Assembly (NCBI GenBank): GCA_964242815.1 | Contig: CAXSZV010000014.1 | Coordinates: 4,994 to 68,993, forward strand | DNA length: 64,000 nt | Source of the DNA: an uncultured Novosphingobium sp. | GTDB taxonomy: Bacteria > Pseudomonadota > Alphaproteobacteria > Sphingomonadales > Sphingomonadaceae | Direction: 5' to 3' | Shown: in pieces, positions 5,137 to 29,373 of the stretch | Numbering within the stretch: the first letter of the stretch is position 1 | How the letters are laid out: every line of letters starts with the position of its first letter | Made by a program: the position numbers and the translations under genes | The notes under the pieces: generated by a model | Database searches by the model: none | Told to the model about the DNA's origin: nothing | Seen by the model: the letters and a program-made list of their open reading frames with translations, nothing else

Positions 5137-6642
5137 TCAGGCCAGCGCAGCCTTGACCGCCGCGTTGACCACTTGCGGGTTGGCCTTGCCCGCCATCGCC
5201 TTCATCGTCTGGCCGACGAAGAAGCCGAACAACGCCTCCTTGCCCGCGCGATATTGCGCGACCTTGTCGGCGTTGTCGGCCAGGACCTTGGCGACCGCTA
5301 CGTCGATCGCGCCGCTATCGCTGGTCTGGCGCAGCCCCTCGCGTTCGACGATCGTCGCCGCGCCGTCGCCGGTCTCGAGCATCAGCTCGAACACCTGCTT
5401 GCCGATGCTGCCCGATATCGTGCCATCGCCGATCAGCGCGAGCAGCTCGGCCGCGCGCGCGGGCGTGACCGGCGCGTCGGCCAGCTCGACCCCCAGCCGG
5501 TTCAACGCTCCGAACAGTTCGGAGATCACCCAATTCGCCGCTTGCTTGGCCACTTCGGCCTCGGGCCGCGCCTGCCGCTCCGCGCTCGCGGCGAGCAGCC
5601 GCTCGAACCAGCGCGCGGTGTCCGCCTCGGCGGTCAGCACTTCGGCGTTGTACGTGCTGAGCCCCAGCCCCTCTTCGTACCGCGTGCGCTTCGCGTCGGG
5701 CAGTTCGGGCAGCGAATCGCGGCATTCGTCGAGGAACGCATCGTCGAGTTCGAGCGGCAGCAGGTCGGGATCGGGAAAATAGCGATAGTCCTGCGCGTCT
5801 TCCTTCGAGCGCATCGACCGCGTCTCGTTGCGGTCGGGATCGTAGAGCCGCGTCTCCTGCGCGACCGCGCCGCCGCTCTCGATCAGCGCGACCTGCCGCC
5901 GCGCTTCGCCTTCGACCACCGCCATCACGAAGCGCACCGAATTGACGTTCTTGGTCTCGGTCCGCGTGCCGAGCTCGCCCCCAAGCTTCCGCACGCTGAC
6001 GTTGACGTCGGCGCGCATCGAGCCTTCCTCCATGTTGCCGTCGCACGATCCGACATAGCGCAGGATCGCGCGCAGCTTGCGCAAGTACGCGCCGGCTTCG
6101 GCCGGGCTGCGCATGTCGGGGCGGCTGACGATCTCCATCAGCGCGACGCCCGACCGGTTGAGATCGACGTAGCTCATGCTCGGGTGCTGATCGTGCATCA
6201 GCTTGCCCGCGTCCTGCTCGACATGGATGCGCTCGATGCCGATCGTCTTGACGTTCGCCGGGTCCTTGTCGTCGGGGGTGATGGCGATCGCGCCTTCGCC
6301 GACCAGCGGATGGTAGAGCTGGCTGATCTGATAGCCCTGCGGCAGGTCGGCGTAGAAATAGTTCTTGCGATCGAACCGCGACCAGCGGTTGATCGCGGCG
6401 CCGACCGCCATGCCGGTGCGCACCGCCTGGCGGATGCATTCGCGGTTGGGCACGGGCAGCATCCCCGGCATCGCCGCGTCGACCAGGCTGACCTGCGCGT
6501 TGGGCTCCGCGCCGAACGCGGTCGCCGCCCCGCTGAAGAGCTTCGATGCACTGGTGATCTGTGCGTGGACCTCCAGCCCGATCACCACTTCCCACTCGCC
6601 GGTGGCGCCCTTGATGCGATAGTCGTTGGTCTGGCTTGCCAT
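5137..6642 (-). CDS. gatB: Asp/Glu-tRNA amidotransferase subunit B
   Basis: [50 protein letters not shown]. Confidence 0.98.
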
Positions 6643-6711
6643 AGCGACGCACAGTAGGGATCGCCATCGCGCTTGCCAATCGCGCGATCTGCCGCCAGAC
6701 GGCAGGCCGCG

Positions 6712-7857
6712 ATGCACGCGAGCATATCACCCGATCGAACCCTGTCGTTTGCATTGGCGCCCGCGATCGACGCGCCGCTCGCGCTGACCGTGATCGTCCC
6801 GACGTTCAACGAAGCGCCCAACGTCGCGCCGATGGTGGCGGCGCTCGACGTGGCCCTCGCCGGGCTCGCCTGGGAAGTCGTGTTCGTCGATGATAACTCG
6901 CCCGACCAGACATCGGAGGCGGTACGCGCGATCGCCAGGGCCGACCGCCGCGTGCGGATCGTCCAGCGCGTCGGCCGGCGCGGGCTGTCATCCGCGGTGG
7001 TCGAAGGCATGCTGTCGAGCGCAGCGCCGGTGGTGGCGGTGATCGACGGCGATATGCAGCACGACGAAGCGGTGCTCGCGACGCTCTATGCGGCGATCGC
7101 CGAGCAGGGCCACGATCTCGCGATCGGCACGCGCTATACTGAGGGCGGATCGACCGGCGACTGGAGCCGCTCGCGCCTGATCGCCAGCCGCTTCGCGACG
7201 CGGTTGTCGCACCTGCTGCTCAAGAACGACGTCAAGGACCCGATGAGCGGCTTTTTCGCGGTGCGCCGCGACGTGTTCATGGAAGCGCTGCCGAAACTTT
7301 CGATGGTCGGCTTCAAGATCCTGCTCGACATGGTCGCCTCGGTCCCGCGCAAGCTGTCGATCGCCGAAATCCCCTACACCTTCCGCTGTCGCGTCGCGGG
7401 GGAGAGCAAACTCGACAGCAAGGTCGCGCAGGAATTCGGCGCTCTGTTGCTCGAGAAGCTGTTCGGCCACATCATTCCCGTGCGCTTCTTGATGTTCGCG
7501 ATGGTCGGCGGGCTGGGGCTCGTGGTGAACCTGGGCGTGCTCGGCCTGTTGTTCCGCATCGGCGGACTGTCATTCAACGTCAGCCTGACCATCGCGGTGT
7601 TCACCGCGATGACGTTCAACTACGTGCTCAACAACAGCTTCACGTATCGGGATATGAGATTGCGCGGCGCGAAGTTCGTGCGCGGGCTGCTGAGCTTCTA
7701 CGCGGTGTGCCTGATCGGCGCGATCGGCAACATCGGCGTCGGCGATTACGTCAACAACATGCACTATCGCTGGTGGCTGGCGGGGTTGGCGGGGACGGTC
7801 GTCGGTGTCGTGTGGAACTACGCGGCGAGCTCGCTAGTGACGTGGAGAAGGAAGTAG
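6712..7857 (+). CDS. GT2 (DPM1-like) glycosyltransferase fused to a GtrA flippase-like domain
   Basis: [32 protein letters not shown], followed by a four-helix GtrA-like C-terminus (FAMVGGLG...WNY). Confidence 0.9.
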
Positions 7858-7884
7858 TATTTTATAGAGAGGTCAAGCAATTGA

Positions 7885-7920
7885 TGGTGTCTGGGGACGT
7901 GCGTATATTCCCAGACACCA
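7885..7920. terminator. Stem-loop between convergent genes
   Basis: Perfect 11-bp inverted repeat tggtgtctggg / cccagacacca with a 14-nt loop. Confidence 0.5.
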
Positions 7921-7952
7921 GCGTTAAGCCATATGCATATATTCGGACGAAA

Positions 7953-9152
7953 TTAGATATTTGCTAGAATAGAGTTGGGAGTAGTTCCATTATTACTAAT
8001 CCCTGCAGTGATGTTCCCCGTCGTATCATTGGACGAAATAATGTAGTTACTAGCAGAAGTTTGTGCAAAAATGCCGGTTCTCTGTTGCCCAGTTGCACCA
8101 TTTACACCACCAACTCGACAACCTGTAATGATAGTATGACTATTATTAAAGAATACGCCGTGAAATGTATTAGTTGCTTGTTGACCATTGAGCCCGATAA
8201 CGCAATTACCTAACGTAATGTCCTTGGGTCCATTATTTATCAAGATACCATTCTGAGCATTACCGGCAATCCGTGTTGCGGTTATCGATACATCTCCAAG
8301 GTAAGATGATCCGATAAAGACCCCATTGCCGGCAAGACATGATCCAACGAAAGCGCCTGTAAGGTAGAAGGCGGTTCCGCCAGTGAGATTTACACCGCCC
8401 GCCTGATTGTGATCGCATTCGAGATCAAAGACGTAGGCAAACTGCGGCCGACTGGCCGCTCCCTGACCAGCAGAATCAGCCATTACAAAGCCGACACCAC
8501 CTTGCAGCAAAGCGGCGCGTTTAATTGTAAGTGAGTTGGCGTAAGAGTCCATTTGAAATAGATTTGCCGAGGTATTTCCGGTATCAATCGTATCTACGAC
8601 TAGATCGGTTGCAGTCATGCCATAGCAGATATTATTAGCACCTGCTGTACCCCCATAGAAGACGCCATACGATCCGTAGGGTCCACGGATTAAAACCTGT
8701 TCAATCAGCGTCTCTGTCGAAGAAAGTACCTTAATTCCGTTCCAACAATAACCTATGTTAGTATTAGAAACGTGATTATCATAAGAGTTGCCATTACCAT
8801 TATTATTATTGAACTCGATTGCCACGCCACCGGTAGGGTTACCAGTGGTTCGATCGCTATAAATAGCGAGGTCTTCAACTCCACTATACGCACAACCCGA
8901 GAAGGTAATGGCATTAGATGATCTATTTGAATTTTTTATGAAGGTTGCTCCATGACCTTCACCACGAAGAGTACATCCGTTTTTCATACTAATATTTAGG
9001 GGGTTAGTTATCTTATAGGTTCCAGCAGGAAAGTACACAATTCCTCCGTTGGAACTTGCGATGCAGTCATTAATCGCAGCCTGAATAGCGGCGGTGTCAT
9101 CAGTTGATCCGTTGCCCGAAGCGCCTTTTGCGGTAACATTATAGACCGTCAT
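7953..9152 (-). CDS. Right-handed parallel beta-helix protein (Pectate_lyase_3/GH28-like N-terminus), low GC
   Basis: YNVTAKGASGNGSTDDTAAIQAAI...VYFPAGTYKI motif; Asn/Gly/Ile-rich beta-helix pattern; no signal peptide. Sampled lines are 37-45% GC. Confidence 0.85.
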   Translation of the reverse strand: MTVYNVTAKGASGNGSTDDTAAIQAAINDCIASSNGGIVYFPAGTYKITNPLNISMKNGCTLRGEGHGATFIKNSNRSSNAITFSGCAYSGVEDLAIYSDRTTGNPTGGVAIEFNNNNGNGNSYDNHVSNTNIGYCWNGIKVLSSTETLIEQVLIRGPYGSYGVFYGGTAGANNICYGMTATDLVVDTIDTGNTSANLFQMDSYANSLTIKRAALLQGGVGFVMADSAGQGAASRPQFAYVFDLECDHNQAGGVNLTGGTAFYLTGAFVGSCLAGNGVFIGSSYLGDVSITATRIAGNAQNGILINNGPKDITLGNCVIGLNGQQATNTFHGVFFNNSHTIITGCRVGGVNGATGQQRTGIFAQTSASNYIISSNDTTGNITAGISNNGTTPNSILANI

Positions 9153-9423
9153 GACTAAATACCTTTTCAAAAAAAATTGATATGTTGATAAAAACCGGCA
9201 TTATTATTAATAATTCTCGGTTGAAAAATACGTCGATATATATCCCTTTTCAGCAGGTAGCGAATCATATGTTCACGATTCGTTCCGTGTAGGAAAGTGA
9301 AATTTAATCGACATTCGCTTCGCGGATGGGGCGTGTCACCGATGCGTTCACGGTGTCATTTGAAGCGGCGTGAATGACGTAAGAACCCTGCTCTGAGGGA
9401 CCGTCAGGGGGTCGTTTATGGGC

Positions 9424-10911
9424 TTACCACCACTGCTGGGGCTTGGCGTTGAACCCGGCGCGCTGCTCGATCGCTCGCCCCGCATTCAGCACGCCCTGCT
9501 CGTCGAGCGGGCGGCCGATCAGCTGCAAGCCCAGCGGCAGGCCCTCGCGGTTCAGTCCCGCCGGCACCGACATCGCGGGCAGCCCGGCCAGGCTGGCGGG
9601 CACCGAGAAAACGTCGTTCAGGTACATCGCCAACGGATCGTCGCTCTTCTCGCCGAGCGCGAACGCGGCGGTCGGCGTGGTCGGCGCGAGGATCACGTCG
9701 CAACTTGCCCAGGCGTCCTCGAAGTCACGCGCGATCAGCGTGCGCACCTTCTGCGCCTGCGTGTAATAGGCGTCGTAGTACCCGGCCGACAGAACATACG
9801 TGCCGATCAGGATGCGGCGCTTGACCTCGCCGCCGAAGCCCGCCGCGCGCGTCGCTGCGTACATGTCCTGCAACCCCGCGCCGGCGGGCAGATCGCGCAG
9901 GCCGAAGCGCACGCCGTCGTAGCGCGCGAGGTTGGACGAGGCTTCGGCGGGCGCGATGATGTAATACGTCGGCAGCGCGTATTTCGTATGGGGCAGGCTG
10001 ATGTCGACGATCGTCGCGCCTGCGTCGCGGAGCCAGGCGATGCCCTGCTCCCAGCTCGCGGCGACATCGGCGTCCATGCCGTCCATCCGGTATTCGCGCG
10101 GGATGCCGACGCGCTTGCCCCCAAGATCGCCCGATAGCGCCGCTTCCCAATCGGGCACGGCTAGCGCGAGGCTGGTCGCGTCCTTCGCATCGAAGCCCGC
10201 CATCGCGCCGAGCATGATCGCGCAGTCGCGCACCGTCCGCGCCATCGGCCCCGCCTGGTCGAGCGAGGAGGCGAACGCGACGATGCCCCAGCGCGAGCAG
10301 CGGCCATAGGTCGGCTTGATCCCGCAGATGCCGGTGAACGCGGCAGGCTGCCGGATCGATCCGCCGGTGTCGGTGCCGGTCGCCGCCGGGCACAGCCGCG
10401 CGGCGACGCTAGCGCTGCTGCCGCCCGACGAGCCGCCCGGCGCGAGCGCGGCGTTGCCGCCGTCGGAACGCCGCCACGGCGAGTTGACGTTGCCGAAATA
10501 CGACGTCTCGTTCGACGATCCCATCGCGAACTGATCGAGGTTCAGCTTGCCGAGCATCCCCGCGCCCGCGTCCCACAGCTTCTGCGAGACGGTGCTTTCA
10601 TACTGCGGCATGAACCCTTCGAGGATATGGCTGGCGGCGGTCGTCTGTACCCCGGCGGTCGCGAACAGATCCTTCATCCCGATCGGCACGCCGCCCATCG
10701 CGCCCAGCGGCTCGCCTGCCGCGCGCTTCGCATCGACGCCGCGCGCAGCGTCGAGCGCGTGGTCGGGCGTCGCCACGATGAACGCGTTGAGCGCGGTTTG
10801 CGCGGCGGCGACGTTGGCGTTGAACGCCTCGGCCACCTCGACCGCGCTGAAGCTGCCGGCGACGACGCCATCGCGCAGGTCGGCGACGGTAAGTTCGGTG
10901 AGGTCGGTCAT
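9424..10911 (-). CDS. gatA: Asp/Glu-tRNA amidotransferase subunit A
   Basis: Amidase signature [33 protein letters not shown]. Confidence 0.98.
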
Positions 10912-10988
10912 GACAGGCGCGTTAAAGTCGTGCGATCAACAGGGCAAGGCGAGGCAGAGCGGGATCGGCCATGCATAGCATGTAAACC

Positions 10989-11092
10989 CCGTCGCCCCTG
11001 CGAAGGCAGGGGCCCATACGAGCTTTCCGCGTCGACGCGACGCCGCGTTTCTCGGTGAGCGTGATGGGCCCCTGCCTGCGCAGGGGCGACGG
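10989..11092. repeat. Inverted-repeat element with 29-bp arms
   Basis: ccgtcgcccctgcgaaggcaggggcccat (10989-11017) and atgggcccctgcctgcgcaggggcgacgg (11064-11092) differ by one mismatch; each arm is internally palindromic. Confidence 0.9.
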
Positions 11093-11193
11093 CGGCCTAT
11101 AATGAGAGAGCGAACCCCTAACTCTCCTTACGGTGTAAAGTCGCATCCATGGGAACCGGCCCAACCTGCCGACGGTGCGCCGAGAGGATAGTT

Positions 11194-11240
11194 CCCTCAA
11201 CCAGCCTGCGGCTGGTCCTCCTCCCCGTGCCGGGGAGGAT
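11194..11240 (-). repeat. Single arm of repeat family A
   Basis: Minus strand reads atcctccccggcacggggaggaggaccagccgcaggctggttgaggg, similar to the valS and ligD inserts. It begins about 10 nt after the gatC stop. Confidence 0.75.
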
Positions 11241-11250
11241 CAGGCAGGCG

Positions 11251-11553
11251 CTATTCGATCACTTTGGGCACGCCGAAGAAACCGTGCTCGGCCGCCGGCG
11301 CGTTCGCCAGCACCGCGTCGCGCTTGCCGCCGCCGGTCAGCGGATCTGCGTCGATCACATCGTCGCGCAGGCGCAGATGGTTGGGGATGACGGCAGTCAT
11401 GGGCTCGACGCCGGTCACGTCGACTTCGGCGAGCTGCTGTACCCAGGCGAAAATACCGTTGAGTTCAGGCACCATCGCCGCGATCTCGCGCTCGTCGAGC
11501 CGGATACGCGCAAGCGATGCGATCCGCGCGACGGTTGCAGTGTCGATCGCCAT
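11251..11553 (-). CDS. gatC: Asp/Glu-tRNA amidotransferase subunit C
   Basis: [38 protein letters not shown]; lies upstream of gatA. Confidence 0.97.
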
Positions 11554-11577
11554 GTCAGCGCTCGCCGGCCAGACCGA

Positions 11578-12165
11578 TCAGGGCTGCTGCGGCGCGGGGG
11601 CGATGTCGCCGCCGGGCCCGGCACCCTCGGGTGCCGGCGCTTCGGCCGGCCCAGCGGCGGAAGGCCCACCGGCGCCGCCCCGGCCCGCCTGCATCTGCTG
11701 CAGCTGCTGCATCACCTGCCGCTGCCGCTCGAACTCGGCGCGGCTGACGAAATCGAACAGCTGGACGTCGAACGTCAGGTCGGTGTTCGCCGGGATCGGA
11801 CCCATCGCGCGGTCGCCATAAGCCAGGCTCGCGGGGATCACGACGCGATACTTGCCGCCGCGCTGCATCCGCTCGAGCGCCTTGGTGAACCCGGGAACCA
11901 CGCCGCTCACCGGCATCAGCGTCTGCGGGTTCTCGTCGAACAGCTTGCCGTCGGGCAACGTGCCGCGATAGCCGACCACCGCGATATCGTCGGCGGTCGG
12001 CGATGCGCCGGTCCCCGCCTTGATCGTCTGGAACCGGATCGACGCGGGTATCGTTGCATAAGCGATGCCGGCGGCCGCGAGCATGAGCACGACAAGCCCC
12101 AGCCACAGCTTCGACAGCGCTCCGCGGGATATCGGTCTCAGCGGGACACGGGTGATCTCGGTCAT
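11578..12165 (-). CDS. FKBP-type peptidyl-prolyl isomerase
   Basis: VGYRGTLPDGKLFD, VVPGFTKAL, IPASLAYG, IPANTDLTFDVQL; N-terminal TM segment. Confidence 0.93.
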   Translation of the reverse strand: MTEITRVPLRPISRGALSKLWLGLVVLMLAAAGIAYATIPASIRFQTIKAGTGASPTADDIAVVGYRGTLPDGKLFDENPQTLMPVSGVVPGFTKALERMQRGGKYRVVIPASLAYGDRAMGPIPANTDLTFDVQLFDFVSRAEFERQRQVMQQLQQMQAGRGGAGGPSAAGPAEAPAPEGAGPGGDIAPAPQQP

Positions 12166-19817: not shown

Positions 19818-22583
19818 ATGACGCAGACACTCGGCCGGACGCACCCCCAGATGCCACAGGACCAGACGCCACAGGTCCACACGATGCTCGACAAGACGTT
19901 CGACCCCGCGGCGATCGAGGCGAAGTGGTACGCGCATTGGGAGGCGAACGGCCTGTTTCAACCCGACCGGCCCGACGCCGTGCCTTACACGATCGTCAAC
20001 CCGCCGCCCAACGTCACCGGATCGCTGCACGTCGGCCACGCGCTCGACAACACGTTGCAGGATATCATGATCCGTTACGAGCGGCTGCGCGGCAAGGATG
20101 CGCTGTGGGTGGTCGGCACCGATCACGCGGGCATCGCGACGCAGATGGTGGTCGAGCGGCGTTTGGAGGAACGCCAGGACAAGCGCGCGAACTACACGCG
20201 CGAAGCCTTCGTCGAGAAGGTGTGGGAGTGGAGGCACGAAAGCGGCGGCGCGATCACTCGCCAGCTCCGCCGGTTGGGCTGCTCGATGGACTGGAGTCGC
20301 GAACAGTTCACCATGAGCCCCGAGTTCAGCCGCGCGGTGACCAAGGTGTTCGTCGACCTCTACAACGAGGGGCTGATCTATCGCGACAAGCGGCTGGTGA
20401 ACTGGGATCCGCATTTCCGCACCGCGATTAGCGATCTCGAAGTGGAGCAGCGTGAGGTCAACGGGCACTTCTGGCACTTCCGCTATCCGCTGGCCGACGG
20501 CGCGCGACAGCTGGACGGCCGCGACTATCTGGTCGTCGCCACGACGCGCCCCGAAACGATCCTCGGCGACGGCGCGGTGGCGGTGAACGCGGCAGATGAG
20601 CGGTATCGTCACCTCGTCGGCGCGTGCGTGCGGCTGCCGCTGGTCGACCGGCTGATCCCGGTGATCGCCGACGATTACGTCAAGATCGACTTCGGCTCGG
20701 GCGCGGTGAAGATCACCGCCGCGCACGACCACAACGACTATGACGTTGCCAAGCGCCACCCCGAGGCGAACATCCCGCTCATCAACCTGATGAACGCCGA
20801 CGCGAGCATGAGCGACGCCTGCCCGCCGGGCTATCGTGGGCTGGACAGGTACGAGGCGCGCGCGAAAGTGGTCGCCGATTTCGATGCACTGGGCCTGCTC
20901 GATCATATCGAGGATCACGTCCACCAGGTTCCCTATGGCGACCGCAGCGGCGTCGTCATCGAGCCGTGGCTCACCGACCAGTGGTACGTCGACGCCAAGA
21001 CGCTCGCCCAACCGGCGATCGCGGCGGTGCGCGATGGGCGGATCGATATCGTGCCCAAGAGCTGGGAGAAGACGTTCTTCAACTGGATGGAGAACATCCA
21101 GCCTTGGTGTGTGAGCCGGCAGCTGTGGTGGGGCCATCGGATCCCGGCTTGGTATGGCGATGACGGCTCGATCGTCGTCGCGCAAAGCGAGGGTGAAGCG
21201 CGACGTCTCGCCAATGGAGAGCGGCTGACTCAGGACGAGGACGTCCTCGACACCTGGTTCTCCTCCGCGCTCTGGCCCTTCGCAACGCTCGGCTGGCCCT
21301 TGTCCTCCCCAAGCTCGCTTGGGGCGGGGGACCAGCCGCAGACCGGTGGAGGGGTTCGCTTCGCGGATAGCCTCCTCACCCGCCATTATCCCAACGACCT
21401 GCTCATCTCGGGTTTCGATATCCTGTTTTTCTGGGATGCGCGGATGGCGATGCAGGGGTTGCACTTCATGGGCGATGTGCCGTGGAAGCGGCTGTATCTG
21501 CATGGCTTGGTGCGCGCGGCGGATGGCGCGAAGATGTCGAAGTCCAAGGGCAACGTCGTCGATCCGCTGCTGCTGATCGATCGCTTCGGCGCGGACGCGC
21601 TGCGGTTCTTCATGGCGGCGATGGAGAGCCAGGGCCGCGACGTGAAGATGGACGAGCGGCGGCTCGAGGGATACCGCAACTTCGCCACCAAGCTGTGGAA
21701 CGCCGCGCGGTTCTGCCAGAGCAACGGCATCGGCGCGTCGACGACGCTCGCCGCGCCGGCGGCGACGCTGGCGGTCAACAGGTGGATCGTCGGCGAGGTG
21801 GTCGAGACGCTTGCCGCCATCGACAAGGCGCTCGCCGACCTGCGCTTCGACGCAGCGGCAAACGCGATCTACCACTTCGCGTGGGACACGTTCTGCGACT
21901 GGTACGTGGAGTTGATCAAGCCGGTGCTCGGTCCTCCCGGACCTGAGGAGGACGAGACGCGCGCGGTCGCGGGTTGGGTGCTCGACCAGATCCTGGTCAT
22001 GCTCCACCCGTTCATGCCATTCGTGACCGAGGAGCTGTGGGCCGCGCTCGGCGCGCGGGAGACCGACTTGATCGTCGCGCGATGGCCAGCGCCCGAGGCG
22101 GTGGTCGACGCGGAAGCTAAGACCGACGTTGAATGGCTGATCGCACTCACCGGCAATCTGCGCGCGGCGAAGGCAGAGCTCGGCATCGCCCCCGGTGCGC
22201 GGCTGGATGCGTTCCTGCCGGATCCCGGCGAGCGGACCCGCGCGATCATCGCGGCGAACGCGAGCATCATCGAGCGAGTGACGCGATTGTCGACGATCAG
22301 CTTCGCGCCGCCGCCGGCGGGGGCGGCGATGCAGGTGGGCGTGGGGGACGCCAGCCTGTCGATCCCGCTCGCGGGCGTGATCGACTTGTCCGCCGAACGC
22401 GCGCGCCTGACGAAGTCGCTCGCCACGTCCGAAAAGGAGCGCGACGCGCTCGCCAAGCGGCTCGCCAACACGGCGTTCGTCGAAAAGGCCAAACCCGAGG
22501 CGATCGACAAGGCGCGGGCCGACCATGCGGGCCATGCGGCCGAAGCCGAGCGTCTTGCGGCCGCATTGGCGCGGCTCAATTAG
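19818..22583 (+). CDS. valS: Valine--tRNA ligase
   Basis: [13 protein letters not shown] (HIGH), [18 protein letters not shown]-terminal coiled coil. Start may instead be the Met of MLDKTF. Confidence 0.98.
21302..21355 (+). repeat. Family-A repeat arm inserted in frame in valS
   Basis: gtcctccccaagctcgcttggggcgggggaccagccgcagaccggtggaggggt; its first 19 bp match the intergenic copy at 1832-1850 (reverse complement). Translated as [18 protein letters not shown]. Confidence 0.85.
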
Positions 22584-27687: not shown

Positions 27688-28872
27688 ATGCGGGCGGCGC
27701 ACACCAGATCCTGGCTCGGCGCGCGAGCCCGCGCCCTGCTGGCGGGCGAGGCGCCGGAAAGCGTGCTGTTGATCGCGGTCGCGCTGATCGCGATGGCGCT
27801 CGCCAATTCGGACGTGTCACACGCCTATCACAAGCTGTTCCTCGACCCGTTGCCATGGACGCCGATCGGCGTGCTGACGACGCCGCACCAGTGGATCAAC
27901 GACGCGCTGATGGCCGTGTTCTTCCTGATCGTCGGCCTCGAGATCAGACGCGAAGTCGCGACCGGCGAGCTTTCCGACCCCGGGCGGCGTCGCCTGCCGA
28001 TGATCGCCGCGCTCGCCGGCATGGCGGCCCCCGCGCTGTGCTTCATCGCGATCGCGGGACCGACGGCCCCCTGGCACCGCGGCTGGGCGATACCGGGCGC
28101 GACCGACATCGCCTTCGCGGTCGGCGTGATCGCGCTGCTCGGCAGCCGCGTGCCGCCGACGCTGCGGTTATTCCTTTTGACCGTCGCCATCGTCGACGAT
28201 CTGGGCGCGGTGGCGATCATCGCCCTGCTTTACACCGCCTCGATCTCACTCGGCTGGCTGATGGCGGCGCTGCTGATCTGGGCGGTCATGCTCGCACTCG
28301 CCCGCACGGTCAGGACTACCTGGCCCTACGTCGTGCTGGCGATCATGCTGTGGTTGTGCGTGCTGCGCTCGGGCATACACCCGACGGTCGCCGGCGTGCT
28401 CGCCGGGCTCGCGATCCCGCTCGCGCCCGATCGCGCAGGGGCCAGCATGTCGCTGCGGCTGGAGGAACGCCTGCAGCCGTGGGTGCGCTACGCGATCCTG
28501 CCACTGTTCGCGCTCGCTAATGCGGGCGTATCAATCGAGGGTCTGGCGGGTTTCGCCGCGCCGCTGCCGCTGGCGATCGCGACGGGGCTGTTCGTCGGCA
28601 AACAGCTCGGCGTGTTCGGCGCGATCGTGCTCGCCGAGAGGCTGGGCCTCGCGACCCGGCCCGCCGGCGCGAGCTGGGTGCAGCTGTGGGGCGTCGCCAT
28701 CCTGTGCGGCATCGGCTTCACGATGAGCCTGTTCATCGCCGGGCTCGCGTTCGCCGATCAGCCTACGTTGTTCGAAGCGGCGAAGCTCGGCGTGATCGGC
28801 GGATCGCTGCTATCGATGATCGCCGGATATGCGGTGCTGTGGTTCGCGGGTCGCCCGACGGCGGTAGCGTAG
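27688..28872 (+). CDS. nhaA: Na+/H+ antiporter NhaA
   Basis: WINDALMAVFF, GWAIPGATDIAF, AIVDDLGA, GIGFTMSLFI. Confidence 0.96.
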   Translation: MRAAHTRSWLGARARALLAGEAPESVLLIAVALIAMALANSDVSHAYHKLFLDPLPWTPIGVLTTPHQWINDALMAVFFLIVGLEIRREVATGELSDPGRRRLPMIAALAGMAAPALCFIAIAGPTAPWHRGWAIPGATDIAFAVGVIALLGSRVPPTLRLFLLTVAIVDDLGAVAIIALLYTASISLGWLMAALLIWAVMLALARTVRTTWPYVVLAIMLWLCVLRSGIHPTVAGVLAGLAIPLAPDRAGASMSLRLEERLQPWVRYAILPLFALANAGVSIEGLAGFAAPLPLAIATGLFVGKQLGVFGAIVLAERLGLATRPAGASWVQLWGVAILCGIGFTMSLFIAGLAFADQPTLFEAAKLGVIGGSLLSMIAGYAVLWFAGRPTAVA

Positions 28873-28873
28873 C

Positions 28874-29290
28874 CTACCACACCCCGACGTTGGGCATGCT
28901 CGTCCAGGGTTCGCGCGGCGGCAGCGAACCGTCCTGCAGCAGTTCGATCGAAATGCCGTCGGGCGTGCGGACGAAGGCCATGTGCCCATCGCGCGGCGGC
29001 CGGTTGATCGTAACGCCCGCTTCCGTCAGCCGCGCGCAGGTCGCATAGATATCGTCGACGAGGTATGCGAGATGGCCGAAGTTGCGTCCGCCGTCGTATG
29101 GCTCCGGATCCCAGTTGTGCGTCAGCTCGACTTGCGTGTCCTCCTGCCCGGGAGCGGCGAGGAAGATCAGCGTGAAGCGGCCTTTCTCGCTGTCGTGGCG
29201 ACGCACTTCGCGAAGGCCGATGAGTTCGAAGAAGCGGATCGTCGCGACGGGGTCGCTGACGCGGATCATGGTGTGGAGGTAGCGGGTCAT
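28874..29290 (-). CDS. VOC-family lactoylglutathione lyase (glyoxalase I-like)
   Basis: YLHTMIRV, ELTHNWDPEPYDGGRNFGHLAY, PDGISIEL. Confidence 0.92.
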   Translation of the reverse strand: MTRYLHTMIRVSDPVATIRFFELIGLREVRRHDSEKGRFTLIFLAAPGQEDTQVELTHNWDPEPYDGGRNFGHLAYLVDDIYATCARLTEAGVTINRPPRDGHMAFVRTPDGISIELLQDGSLPPREPWTSMPNVGVW

Positions 29291-29339
29291 ACGGACGCCT
29301 GTACCGCGTATCGAGGCATCGGGCCACCGGCGTCGCGCA

Positions 29340-29373
29340 TAAAAAGGGGCCGCGCGATTGCCCGCGCGACCCC
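29340..29373 (-). terminator. Rho-independent terminator of the porin gene
   Basis: Minus strand GGGGTCGCGCG-GGCAA-TCGCGCGGCCCC followed by a T run, about 20 nt after the stop. Confidence 0.75.

Follow-up and report, generated by a model that had tools for sequence, protein, structure and literature searches.

A foreign beta-helix gene akin to phage tail-fibre domains at an integrase-free insertion hotspot between gatA and gatB of an uncultured Novosphingobium

The gatCAB operon of an uncultured Novosphingobium sp. is interrupted by a gene of conspicuously foreign composition, which raises the question of where this gene came from, how it entered the operon and what it may do for its host. 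The locus was analysed in a stretch of 64,000 nucleotides (contig CAXSZV010000014.1 of assembly GCA_964242815.1, positions 4,994 to 68,993), referred to below as the window, to which all coordinates without a contig label apply. An islet poor in guanine and cytosine (GC) at 7858–9423 carries a single long open reading frame (ORF) for a 399-residue beta-helix protein, and lies between gatA and gatB next to a gene for a fusion of a family 2 glycosyltransferase with a GtrA-type transmembrane domain (GT2-GtrA). It is probable that the islet is a recently acquired single-gene cargo, a bare barrel of the phage-fibre type, which shares a hotspot insert with the foreign GT2-GtrA gene and most likely encodes an active glycan enzyme.

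The composition of the islet sets it apart from its surroundings, its GC content being 44% as against 66–68% on either side. In 300-bp windows the value falls from 0.58–0.73 to 0.39–0.50 at about 7750–9400 and then returns to 0.60–0.70. In 60-bp windows the left edge is abrupt and coincides with the stop codon of the GT2-GtrA gene (7857/7858), the minimum of 0.23–0.35 is found at 9150–9270, 5' of the beta-helix gene, and 0.70 is regained inside gatA, from 9424 onwards, the AT-rich region upstream of the gene (9153–9423) reaching moderate GC right beside the gatA stop codon. The sudden fall over about 1.5 kb, deepest upstream of the gene, that a preliminary description of this DNA had reported was thus confirmed at both window sizes. 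The beta-helix gene itself has a GC content of 0.444 and a GC content at third codon positions (GC3) of 0.378, compared with 0.89–0.90 for gatA, gatB and the GT2-GtrA gene; this GC3 is the lowest among the 1650 ORFs of at least 300 residues in the 2.54-Mb genome. The islet also lies within the three lowest-GC 1-kb stretches of the genome, about 6 standard deviations under the mean (1-kb windows; mean 0.662, standard deviation 0.036).

The distribution of the protein agrees with its composition. Searches of 24 genomes of the genus and 16 of the order returned only weak matches confined to the N-terminal cap, and none at E ≤1e-15 was obtained from 400 genomes of the same family representing 112 genera. 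When a four-sequence alignment was used as query against approximately 186,000 species genomes, the highest identity of a full-length match was 29%, and all other matches covered the cap only. A foreign origin and a recent acquisition from a lower-GC source are therefore supported, as had been proposed beforehand, by the lowest GC3 of the genome, by the lack of a match beyond the cap in the 40 relatives or of any in the 400 family genomes, and by the coupled gatA and gatB of the relatives described below; conservation of the gene at this locus across the family, with a similar composition, was not found.

An abrupt change of composition in a metagenome-type assembly of 33 contigs could also result from DNA of a low-GC organism having been joined to a sphingomonad contig during assembly or binning, a danger of which the preliminary description had warned. 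Such a chimera is so improbable here that it can practically be set aside. The islet is internal to a contig of 69.7 kb with host genes on both sides, and both of its junctions are reproduced in two further assemblies: a 121-kb metagenome contig from ENA (L155) matches 13.2 kb of the window with 99.97% identity, and a 3,054-bp contig (L156), which Logan assembled independently from run ERR5059413, matches window positions 6457–9510 with 100% identity. Both encode exactly this protein, and both run continuously from gatA through the islet and the GT2-GtrA gene to gatB.

Small islets of low GC are found elsewhere in the same genome, about 28 of them with a length of 1–4 kb and a GC content below 0.55, among others at C19:36041–36754, C9:60254–61096, C20:16351–18117, C20:37699–38427, C2:8288–9244 and C1:16474–19934. 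Judged by eye, those of lowest GC code for an AAA-ATPase-like protein, for a large protein whose C-terminus resembles a deaminase, for Abi-like proteins, and for FkbM-type methyltransferases along with a glycosyltransferase, a cargo that looks like typical defence and glycan genes of the flexible genome.

The way in which the gene came to lie inside the operon can be approached from the order of features at the locus, which is as follows.

5137–6642, minus strand: gatB (NCBIfam GatB equivalog, E 1.4e-239; 73–86% identity to gatB of the genus)
6643–6711: divergent spacer of 69 bp, from the gatB start to the GT2-GtrA start, as given by their coordinates
6712–7857, plus strand: fusion of GT2 with a GtrA-type transmembrane domain (PF00535, 9.1e-30; PF04138, 1.7e-19)
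7858–7952: AT-rich spacer between the two convergent genes, with a hairpin at 7885–7920 recognised as an inverted repeat
7953–9152, minus strand: beta-helix gene, 399 residues, PF12708 family, the single long ORF of the islet
9153–9423: AT-rich upstream region, GC 0.43 falling to 0.23 in the GC windows
9424–10911, minus strand: gatA (PF01425 Amidase, 1.4e-142; 78–89% identity to the gatA that adjoins gatB in relatives)
11251–11553, minus strand: gatC, first gene of the operon (PF02686 at G000:C14:16262–16492, corresponding to window 11269–11499; also called as a gene in L155)

The insert between gatA and gatB consequently measures 2781 bp (6643–9423) and contains two convergent genes of very different composition. 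That a low-GC gene sits in the gatCAB operon, as first described, holds true, but an extent of about 1.5 kb does not, since the whole insert includes the GC-rich GT2-GtrA gene on the opposite strand. No integrase or transposase is present in the list of ORFs of the islet, and a search for direct or inverted repeats at its flanks and for att-like sites gave nothing above matches of chance length, so that the absence of a mobility gene claimed at the outset was borne out.

Comparison of the junction (window 6643–9423 together with loci L037–L065 and L157–L160) revealed its ancestral state. Only 1–2 bases lie between the gatA stop and the gatB start of relatives, and the ancestral sequence, ...TGGTGGTAA-G-ATG..., is found in 10 of 23 genomes of the genus and in five of six outgroup genomes. 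This gatA-TAA-G-ATG-gatB coupling is broken in the present genome because the 2.8-kb insert lies between the two genes, and transcription of gatB now presumably either begins in the divergent spacer of 69 bp or reaches the gene by read-through. The beta-helix gene is not conserved at the junction. Among the 23 loci of the genus, 10 have the genes abutting, one has a gap of 92 bp and 10 carry unrelated inserts of 273–1923 bp; the remaining two are a rearranged locus with gatA more than 8 kb off and one at a contig end. The inserted cargo comprises Acyl_transf_3 membrane acyltransferases (confirmed by Pfam in two genomes, with a likeness by eye in two others), an FkbM methyltransferase and a fragment of another methyltransferase, a PIN toxin paired with a small partner, and a 2OG-Fe(II) oxygenase, as well as small ORFs. 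Outside the family the genes abut in five of the six genomes; the sixth, from another family of the same order (L160, G028:C1:2053000–2061638), has an insert of 2471 bp at bases 6169–8639, with a GC content of 0.36–0.48 in a background of 0.70, encoding a HATPase_c protein of about 390 residues. The junction DNA of the window showed no similarity to the junctions of relatives, and an exact 24-mer at the 3' end of gatA, representing the empty-site allele, had no match in metagenome contigs of the Joint Genome Institute (JGI).

It is clear that the gatA|gatB junction is a hotspot of insertion free of mobility genes in this genus, and what it gathers is most likely for the greater part single glycan-modifying genes. 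Hotspots devoid of mobile elements, flanked by core genes and turning over by double homologous recombination in the flanks, have been described previously (Oliveira et al. 2017, PMC5635113). The present junction resembles them in that one pair of core genes surrounds a cargo varying from genome to genome, with no integrase, transposase or repeat, and differs from them in lying within an essential, normally translationally coupled operon. By analogy, the cargo would most simply be exchanged through double homologous recombination within gatA and gatB, the conserved genes on either side, and the lack of integrase, transposase and repeats at the islet would then be due to this way of refreshing the hotspot.

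The non-coding parts of the locus offered few further clues. The terminal hairpin mentioned in the preliminary description does exist, with a perfect stem of 11/11 bp (7885–7895 / 7910–7920), a loop of 14 nt, 12–13 pairs when folded and a free energy of −23 to −27 kcal/mol, but no U-tract lies next to it on either strand, which sets it apart from a canonical intrinsic terminator. Nor does the hairpin belong to a repeat family, since it is unique in the genome. In the AT-rich upstream region promoter-like hexamers were no commoner than in shuffled sequence; Rfam found nothing in 6500–11600 except one sub-threshold match to a small RNA, and the PADLOC defence models matched neither the beta-helix gene nor the GT2-GtrA gene. 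On the far side of gatA, the gap of 339 bp between gatC and gatA (10912–11250) holds a pair of 29-nt inverted repeats (10989–11017 / 11064–11092) that are 97% complementary with a spacer of 46 nt; each arm is itself a small palindrome, only about five such arms are present in the genome, and they do not belong to the palindromic family found at 21302 and 49327 of the window. The ORF at 10922–11200 was rejected as gatC, since the match to the gatC profile falls in 11251–11553.

The other gene of the insert has a history of its own. Its product is, by its sequence, a polyprenyl-phosphate sugar synthase-like glycosyltransferase, of which 24 of 24 members of the genus have one homologue each, with only 42–50% identity (gatA and gatB: 73–89%) and never adjoining the gat genes. 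In the present genome the genes that flank these homologues in relatives are adjacent to each other (C16:27400–28158 and 28315–29370), separated by about 156 bp that contain no remnant. This empty ancestral locus means that the genome has lost the lipid-sugar synthase of its genus, and its only copy, a divergent one, sits in the hotspot; the GT2-GtrA gene is a xenologous replacement of the genus-wide copy. Its host-like GC3 of 0.89 points to an earlier event or to a donor of high GC and, given the GC contents of 0.65 and 0.44, the two genes of the insert probably arrived separately. In serotype-converting phages gtr genes are convergent with the tailspike gene, and the convergent arrangement of the GT2-GtrA and beta-helix genes recalls such loci; this is a resemblance rather than a test, and the difference of 20 GC points argues against a single prophage remnant.

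What the foreign gene encodes could be predicted in some detail. The ORF at 7953–9152 yields 399 residues from its ATG, or 405 from a TTG six codons upstream. Residues 4–212 match PF12708 (Pect-lyase_RHGA_epim, formerly Pectate_lyase_3) with E 1.9e-17 and 64.2 bits against a gathering cut-off of 27, residues 248–394 give a weak Beta_helix match, and no other PF12708 gene is present in the genome. A single-chain AlphaFold2 run with an alignment of 18 sequences produced a single right-handed beta-helix with an N-terminal capping helix at residues 20–32 and about 35 short strands, at a mean predicted local distance difference test (pLDDT) of 94.2 and a predicted template modelling score (pTM) of 0.93. 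At E ≤0.001 the model matched 212 structures of the PDB and 479 of BFVD, all the matches listed being beta-helix proteins. The 64.2-bit domain match and the pLDDT agree with the 399-residue ORF with a Pectate_lyase_3-type N-terminus and beta-helix repeats that had been read from the DNA at first. The protein starts at the helix cap (MTVYNV...) with nothing ahead of it, the frame being open for only 6 codons further upstream. Read directly, its N-terminus MTVYNVTAKGASGNGSTDD has no hydrophobic stretch, in line with the signal peptide having been reported as absent, and no lipobox, twin-arginine (Tat) motif or recognisable secretion tag was seen in the protein sequence.

In 119 near-full-length relatives the polar positions R156, D202, D226, E245, D247, H248, S271, R294, N322 and Q357 are 82–97% conserved. 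All of them are kept in the 399-residue protein, which deviates only at a few aromatic and glycine positions. A candidate active site is formed by the E245-x-D247-H248 row, part of the conserved FDLECDHN at 242–249, together with D202 and D226 on neighbouring coils and R294. Since every polar residue conserved in the family is retained, the protein is predicted to be most likely an active polysaccharide-cleaving or polysaccharide-modifying enzyme.

The origin of the barrel is indicated by its closest full-length relatives outside the small group of stand-alone homologues discussed further below. As judged from sequence comparison, the protein is related to depolymerase domains of phage tail fibres. 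Thirteen IMG/VR loci have 30–40% identity across residues 3–398, in each case inside an open frame of 766–1699 residues in which 86–1281 residues precede the domain and the N-terminal part consists of collagen-like G-x-T or fibre repeats. One of these proteins (L147, 1378 residues) is encoded directly 3' of baseplate hub and wedge genes; at another locus (L141), which also contains a phage clamp loader, a protein of 866 residues matches many tail-fibre and tailspike PHROGs. Furthermore, a relative of 543 residues lies beside tail-tube and tape-measure genes on pMaq22A_1p, a replicon of 1.57 Mb in Methylobacterium aquaticum (L165 7990–9621, i.e. 1248044–1249675). Among cultured phages a full-length match was obtained only in the Prochlorococcus phages P-SSM2 and P-SSM5, with 25.6% identity, and PHROG 2234, 'tail spike', was matched with E 1.7e-9 in the cap region only. 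The structure comparison, which covered BFVD (viral) and the PDB, pointed the same way: the best BFVD match was A0A6J5TB16 of an uncultured member of the Caudovirales, with a template modelling score (TM) of 0.90, a root-mean-square deviation of 2.6 Å and 29% identity, P-SSM2 Q58MX8 gave TM 0.87, and the best PDB matches, the A-modules of AlgE4 and AlgE6, gave TM 0.62–0.66.

Several features of these relatives may be recorded beside this. The M. aquaticum protein is unannotated, the distributed annotation of its replicon consisting of a single feature, and contains an inserted CBM5/12 module. Several viral fibres of the group L140, L143 and L147–L149 contain two successive cap-like motifs, with a second match to residues 4–72 about 500 residues downstream, and several have a domain of about 100 residues inserted between positions 170 and 202 of the helix. 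Evidently the barrel undergoes duplication and decoration in phages.

Among the 151 best representatives of the family, 81 are longer than 600 residues, 78 have more than 100 residues before the domain and 88 end at most 20 residues past it. In a quick maximum-likelihood tree, the root of which is unknown, five stand-alone proteins including the present one form a single clade (support of 99 in the Shimodaira–Hasegawa-like approximate likelihood ratio test) that is grouped with long proteins (support 94), and the domain architecture changes many times on this tree. Some members of the family are cellular proteins with signal peptides or lipoboxes. A derivation from phage is the origin best supported by these sequences and models, the direction of transfer not being demonstrated by the tree; the captured phage depolymerase domain suggested in the preliminary description fares best, with relatives at the C-terminus of fibres of 800–1700 residues and TM values of 0.90 and 0.87 as against 0.66 for the best solved cellular enzymes.

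A cellular source has nevertheless to be weighed. According to this alternative, the gene encodes a polysaccharide-processing enzyme of the AlgE, RbmB or GH87 type that came from a low-GC bacterium and not from a phage, and works with GT2-GtrA on the host's own glycan. The best solved matches, the AlgE4 and AlgE6 A-modules (E 4e-13, TMq 0.62–0.66), are compatible with it, as are further matches to alginate epimerase/lyase, GH87 glucanases and RbmB, which are single-chain helices of similar size, a profile match to the N-terminal third of AlgE4 (E 5e-29), the signal peptides and lipoboxes mentioned above, and the glycan-modifying enzymes represented both by the neighbour GT2-GtrA and by other cargo of the hotspot. 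Phage proteins are closer than the solved enzymes, however, much so in structure (TM 0.90 versus 0.66), and also in sequence (30–40% over the full length versus 12–20%); the AlgE motif YGFDPHE of 2pyg is not found in the 399-residue protein, which also lacks RTX or R-modules and a signal peptide; and the two genes of the insert are 20 GC points apart, convergent and not co-transcribed. We regard a purely cellular enzyme as unlikely, without dismissing it.

Kinship with tail fibres does not by itself make the protein a tailspike. It has the homologous beta-helix domain, but neither a virion anchor nor the context of a tail module, its neighbours being gatA, GT2-GtrA and gatB with no phage ORF near the islet, and it was for this reason not filed as a tailspike. 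It might still be a spike supplied in trans to a gene transfer agent (GTA) or prophage particle of the same genome, since alphaproteobacterial GTAs are known to employ fibre genes from other parts of the genome, and two phage-like structural clusters, each with a capsid and a Phage-tail_3 gene, are present on C17 and C21. This is highly improbable, as no residues precede the beta-helix cap for docking to a baseplate or fibre, the gene is recent and foreign while GTA genes are vertically inherited, and it was not found in any relative with the same kind of cluster. The two clusters lie at G000:C17:7440–15852 and G000:C21:10945–19483 (capsid PF05065 and Phage-tail_3 PF13550 in each), and the spacing of the former is compact as in an RcGTA-like gene transfer agent.

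The few close homologues show in which form the barrel has travelled. A search of 5.8 billion clusters retrieved four close proteins with 60%, 56%, 74% (a fragment) and 45% identity, and an exhaustive phmmer search added P0121 with 50%. At 45% identity or more, collections from about 15 billion proteins contain only P0002, P0003, P0005, P0121 and the split copy L007. The close relatives are stand-alone proteins of 392–401 residues that start M-x-V-Y-N-V at the cap. Of the four homologue loci, three form islets with a lower GC content than their contigs (0.43 versus 0.56, 0.49 versus 0.62, and 0.52 versus 0.61). The genes flanking the four close homologues are mutually unrelated and gave no Pfam matches, and the nucleotide similarity to the nearest homologue ends at the ORF, which together indicate that the transferred unit is the gene alone. 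A protein encoded next to the homologue in L005 had no match in 150 Sphingomonadales genomes, a result that says nothing about the host of this homologue. Synonymous divergence (dS) is saturated against every member of the clade, with non-synonymous divergence (dN) of 0.18–0.53 and no computable dN/dS ratio; the saturation implies that the donor is unsampled and that the stand-alone form is old. The copy in L007 (1319–2496), which has 74% identity in its C-terminal part and is split into ORFs of 134 and 221 residues, occupies an islet of GC 0.40–0.46 in a contig of roughly 0.6 and is a decaying copy in another host.

This decaying copy belongs to the evidence for a less favourable view, in which the gene, an orphaned piece of phage-derived DNA lodged in a hotspot that tolerates insertion, is carried along as a passenger, neutral or silenced, and does nothing for the cell. 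Silencing is common for AT-rich DNA, and the gene is very foreign in composition, has no partner genes and no export route, has its closest relative already split in L007 and is accompanied in its genome by the roughly 28 comparable islets. The ORF is intact, however, and retains all the polar residues conserved in the family, and the stand-alone form is old, with its five members sharing the MxVYNV start, 45–61% identity, saturated dS and a GC content of 0.43–0.60. This old stand-alone architecture argues for selection somewhere, not necessarily in the present host, and a mere passenger appears rather unlikely. A bolder view of the same five-member clade takes its proteins as host-borne 'naked tailspike barrels', without anchor or signal, which pass as single-gene islets between unrelated high-GC bacteria and are kept as a weapon or shield. 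We consider this doubtful and advance it as speculation. If it were true, enzyme from lysed cells could strip the receptor glycan from kin and so bring about phage exclusion at the level of the population, and a naked barrel could degrade the matrix of competitors, here paired with a glycosyltransferase swap that alters the cell's own glycan.

The reading preferred here, that of a recently acquired phage-fibre-type barrel acting as a glycan enzyme, can be stated more fully as a proposed course of events. The acquired gene would encode only the enzymatic or receptor-binding barrel, of monomer size and devoid of virion anchor, stalk and export signal. This barrel would cleave or modify a polysaccharide, the substrate possibly being the exopolysaccharide or glycolipid glycan of the cell itself or of its neighbours. 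Lacking an export signal, as phage tailspikes do, the protein would have to meet its substrate after the lysis of some cells, on a polymer at the cytoplasmic face, or by way of an unrecognised export route. The islet and the replaced GT2-GtrA gene together may constitute a cassette for the diversification of surface glycan.

A number of points weigh against this course of events. Without an export signal the access of the protein to surface glycan is unexplained, and the two genes of the insert, having probably arrived separately, need not cooperate. The tree gives no direction of transfer, and the family also has cellular members with signal peptides or of lipoprotein type. Hydrolase, lyase and epimerase chemistry are indistinguishable here, the best solved matches being alginate epimerases, and the recombination route at gatA and gatB is inferred from analogy with other hotspots.

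The locus is of interest for more than one reason. It offers a clean and bounded case of how a phage barrel for receptor binding or depolymerisation can become a free-standing gene of a bacterium, with the ancestral junction known to the base, a cargo of one gene and a hotspot delimited by two essential genes, and it demonstrates that gatCAB, a translationally coupled essential operon, tolerates repeated insertion of cargo in one genus. If active, the protein would be a compact candidate depolymerase of 399 residues for sphingomonad polysaccharides, and its E-x-D-H row an active-site candidate for a large, mostly phage-borne subfamily of PF12708.

The known system nearest to this arrangement in a bacterial chromosome is WceF of Pantoea stewartii, a tailspike-like exopolysaccharide hydrolase of 736 residues with a Tat signal, a P22-like head domain, a neck, C-terminal domains and a trimeric structure, which is conserved in an exopolysaccharide cluster (PMC7949094). 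Both proteins are chromosomally encoded beta-helices of the phage-tailspike type linked to glycan genes, and WceF makes it plain that a cell can employ such folds to trim the exopolysaccharide it makes. In contrast to WceF, the present protein consists of the helix only, has no signal, is strain-specific and compositionally foreign, and has GT2-GtrA as its sole glycan neighbour.

RbmB of Vibrio cholerae (9ozl, 9ozd) is likewise a cell-encoded single beta-helix, of about 360 residues, and acts on the matrix polysaccharide of its own cell, a role taken from the title of the entry; its identity to the 399-residue protein is 12–15% and TMq 0.52–0.58. RbmB belongs to a conserved biofilm gene cluster and does not lie in a foreign islet. 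The A-modules of AlgE4 and AlgE6 from Azotobacter (2pyg, 5lw3), of about 380 residues, share with the present protein a monomeric single beta-helix and a strongly similar N-terminal cap, and differ by an identity of 16–20% and TM 0.62–0.66, and by the R-modules and the YGFDPHE of AlgE4, both of which are missing here. The stretch YG(F/I)DPH(D/E) is catalytic in mannuronan C5-epimerases of the AlgE type, and the C-terminal RTX-type R-modules serve their type I secretion. The 2pyg chain shows ...SGYGFDPHEQ..., whereas no DPH is present in the 399-residue sequence and no Pfam domain follows the end of the helix at 399. The assignment as an AlgE-type epimerase was rejected, the motif being absent and its alignment ambiguous in register.

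The PF12708 domains of phage fibres and tailspikes (A0A6J5TB16, Q58MX8, L140–L152) are the closest counterparts, agreeing over the whole domain with 25–40% identity, TM 0.87–0.90 and the conserved E-x-D-H row. In phages the domain is usually C-terminal and is preceded by an N-terminal anchor, a collagen-like stalk and fibre repeats, none of which the 399-residue protein possesses, nor does it have the domain of about 100 residues that some phage versions carry between 170 and 202. Beta-helix enzymes gained by horizontal transfer are well documented, as are hotspots without an integrase, and no current idea is overturned by the present locus; to these known systems it adds a tiny stand-alone clade, an essential coupled operon that has been split, and the replacement of GT2-GtrA by a xenologue.

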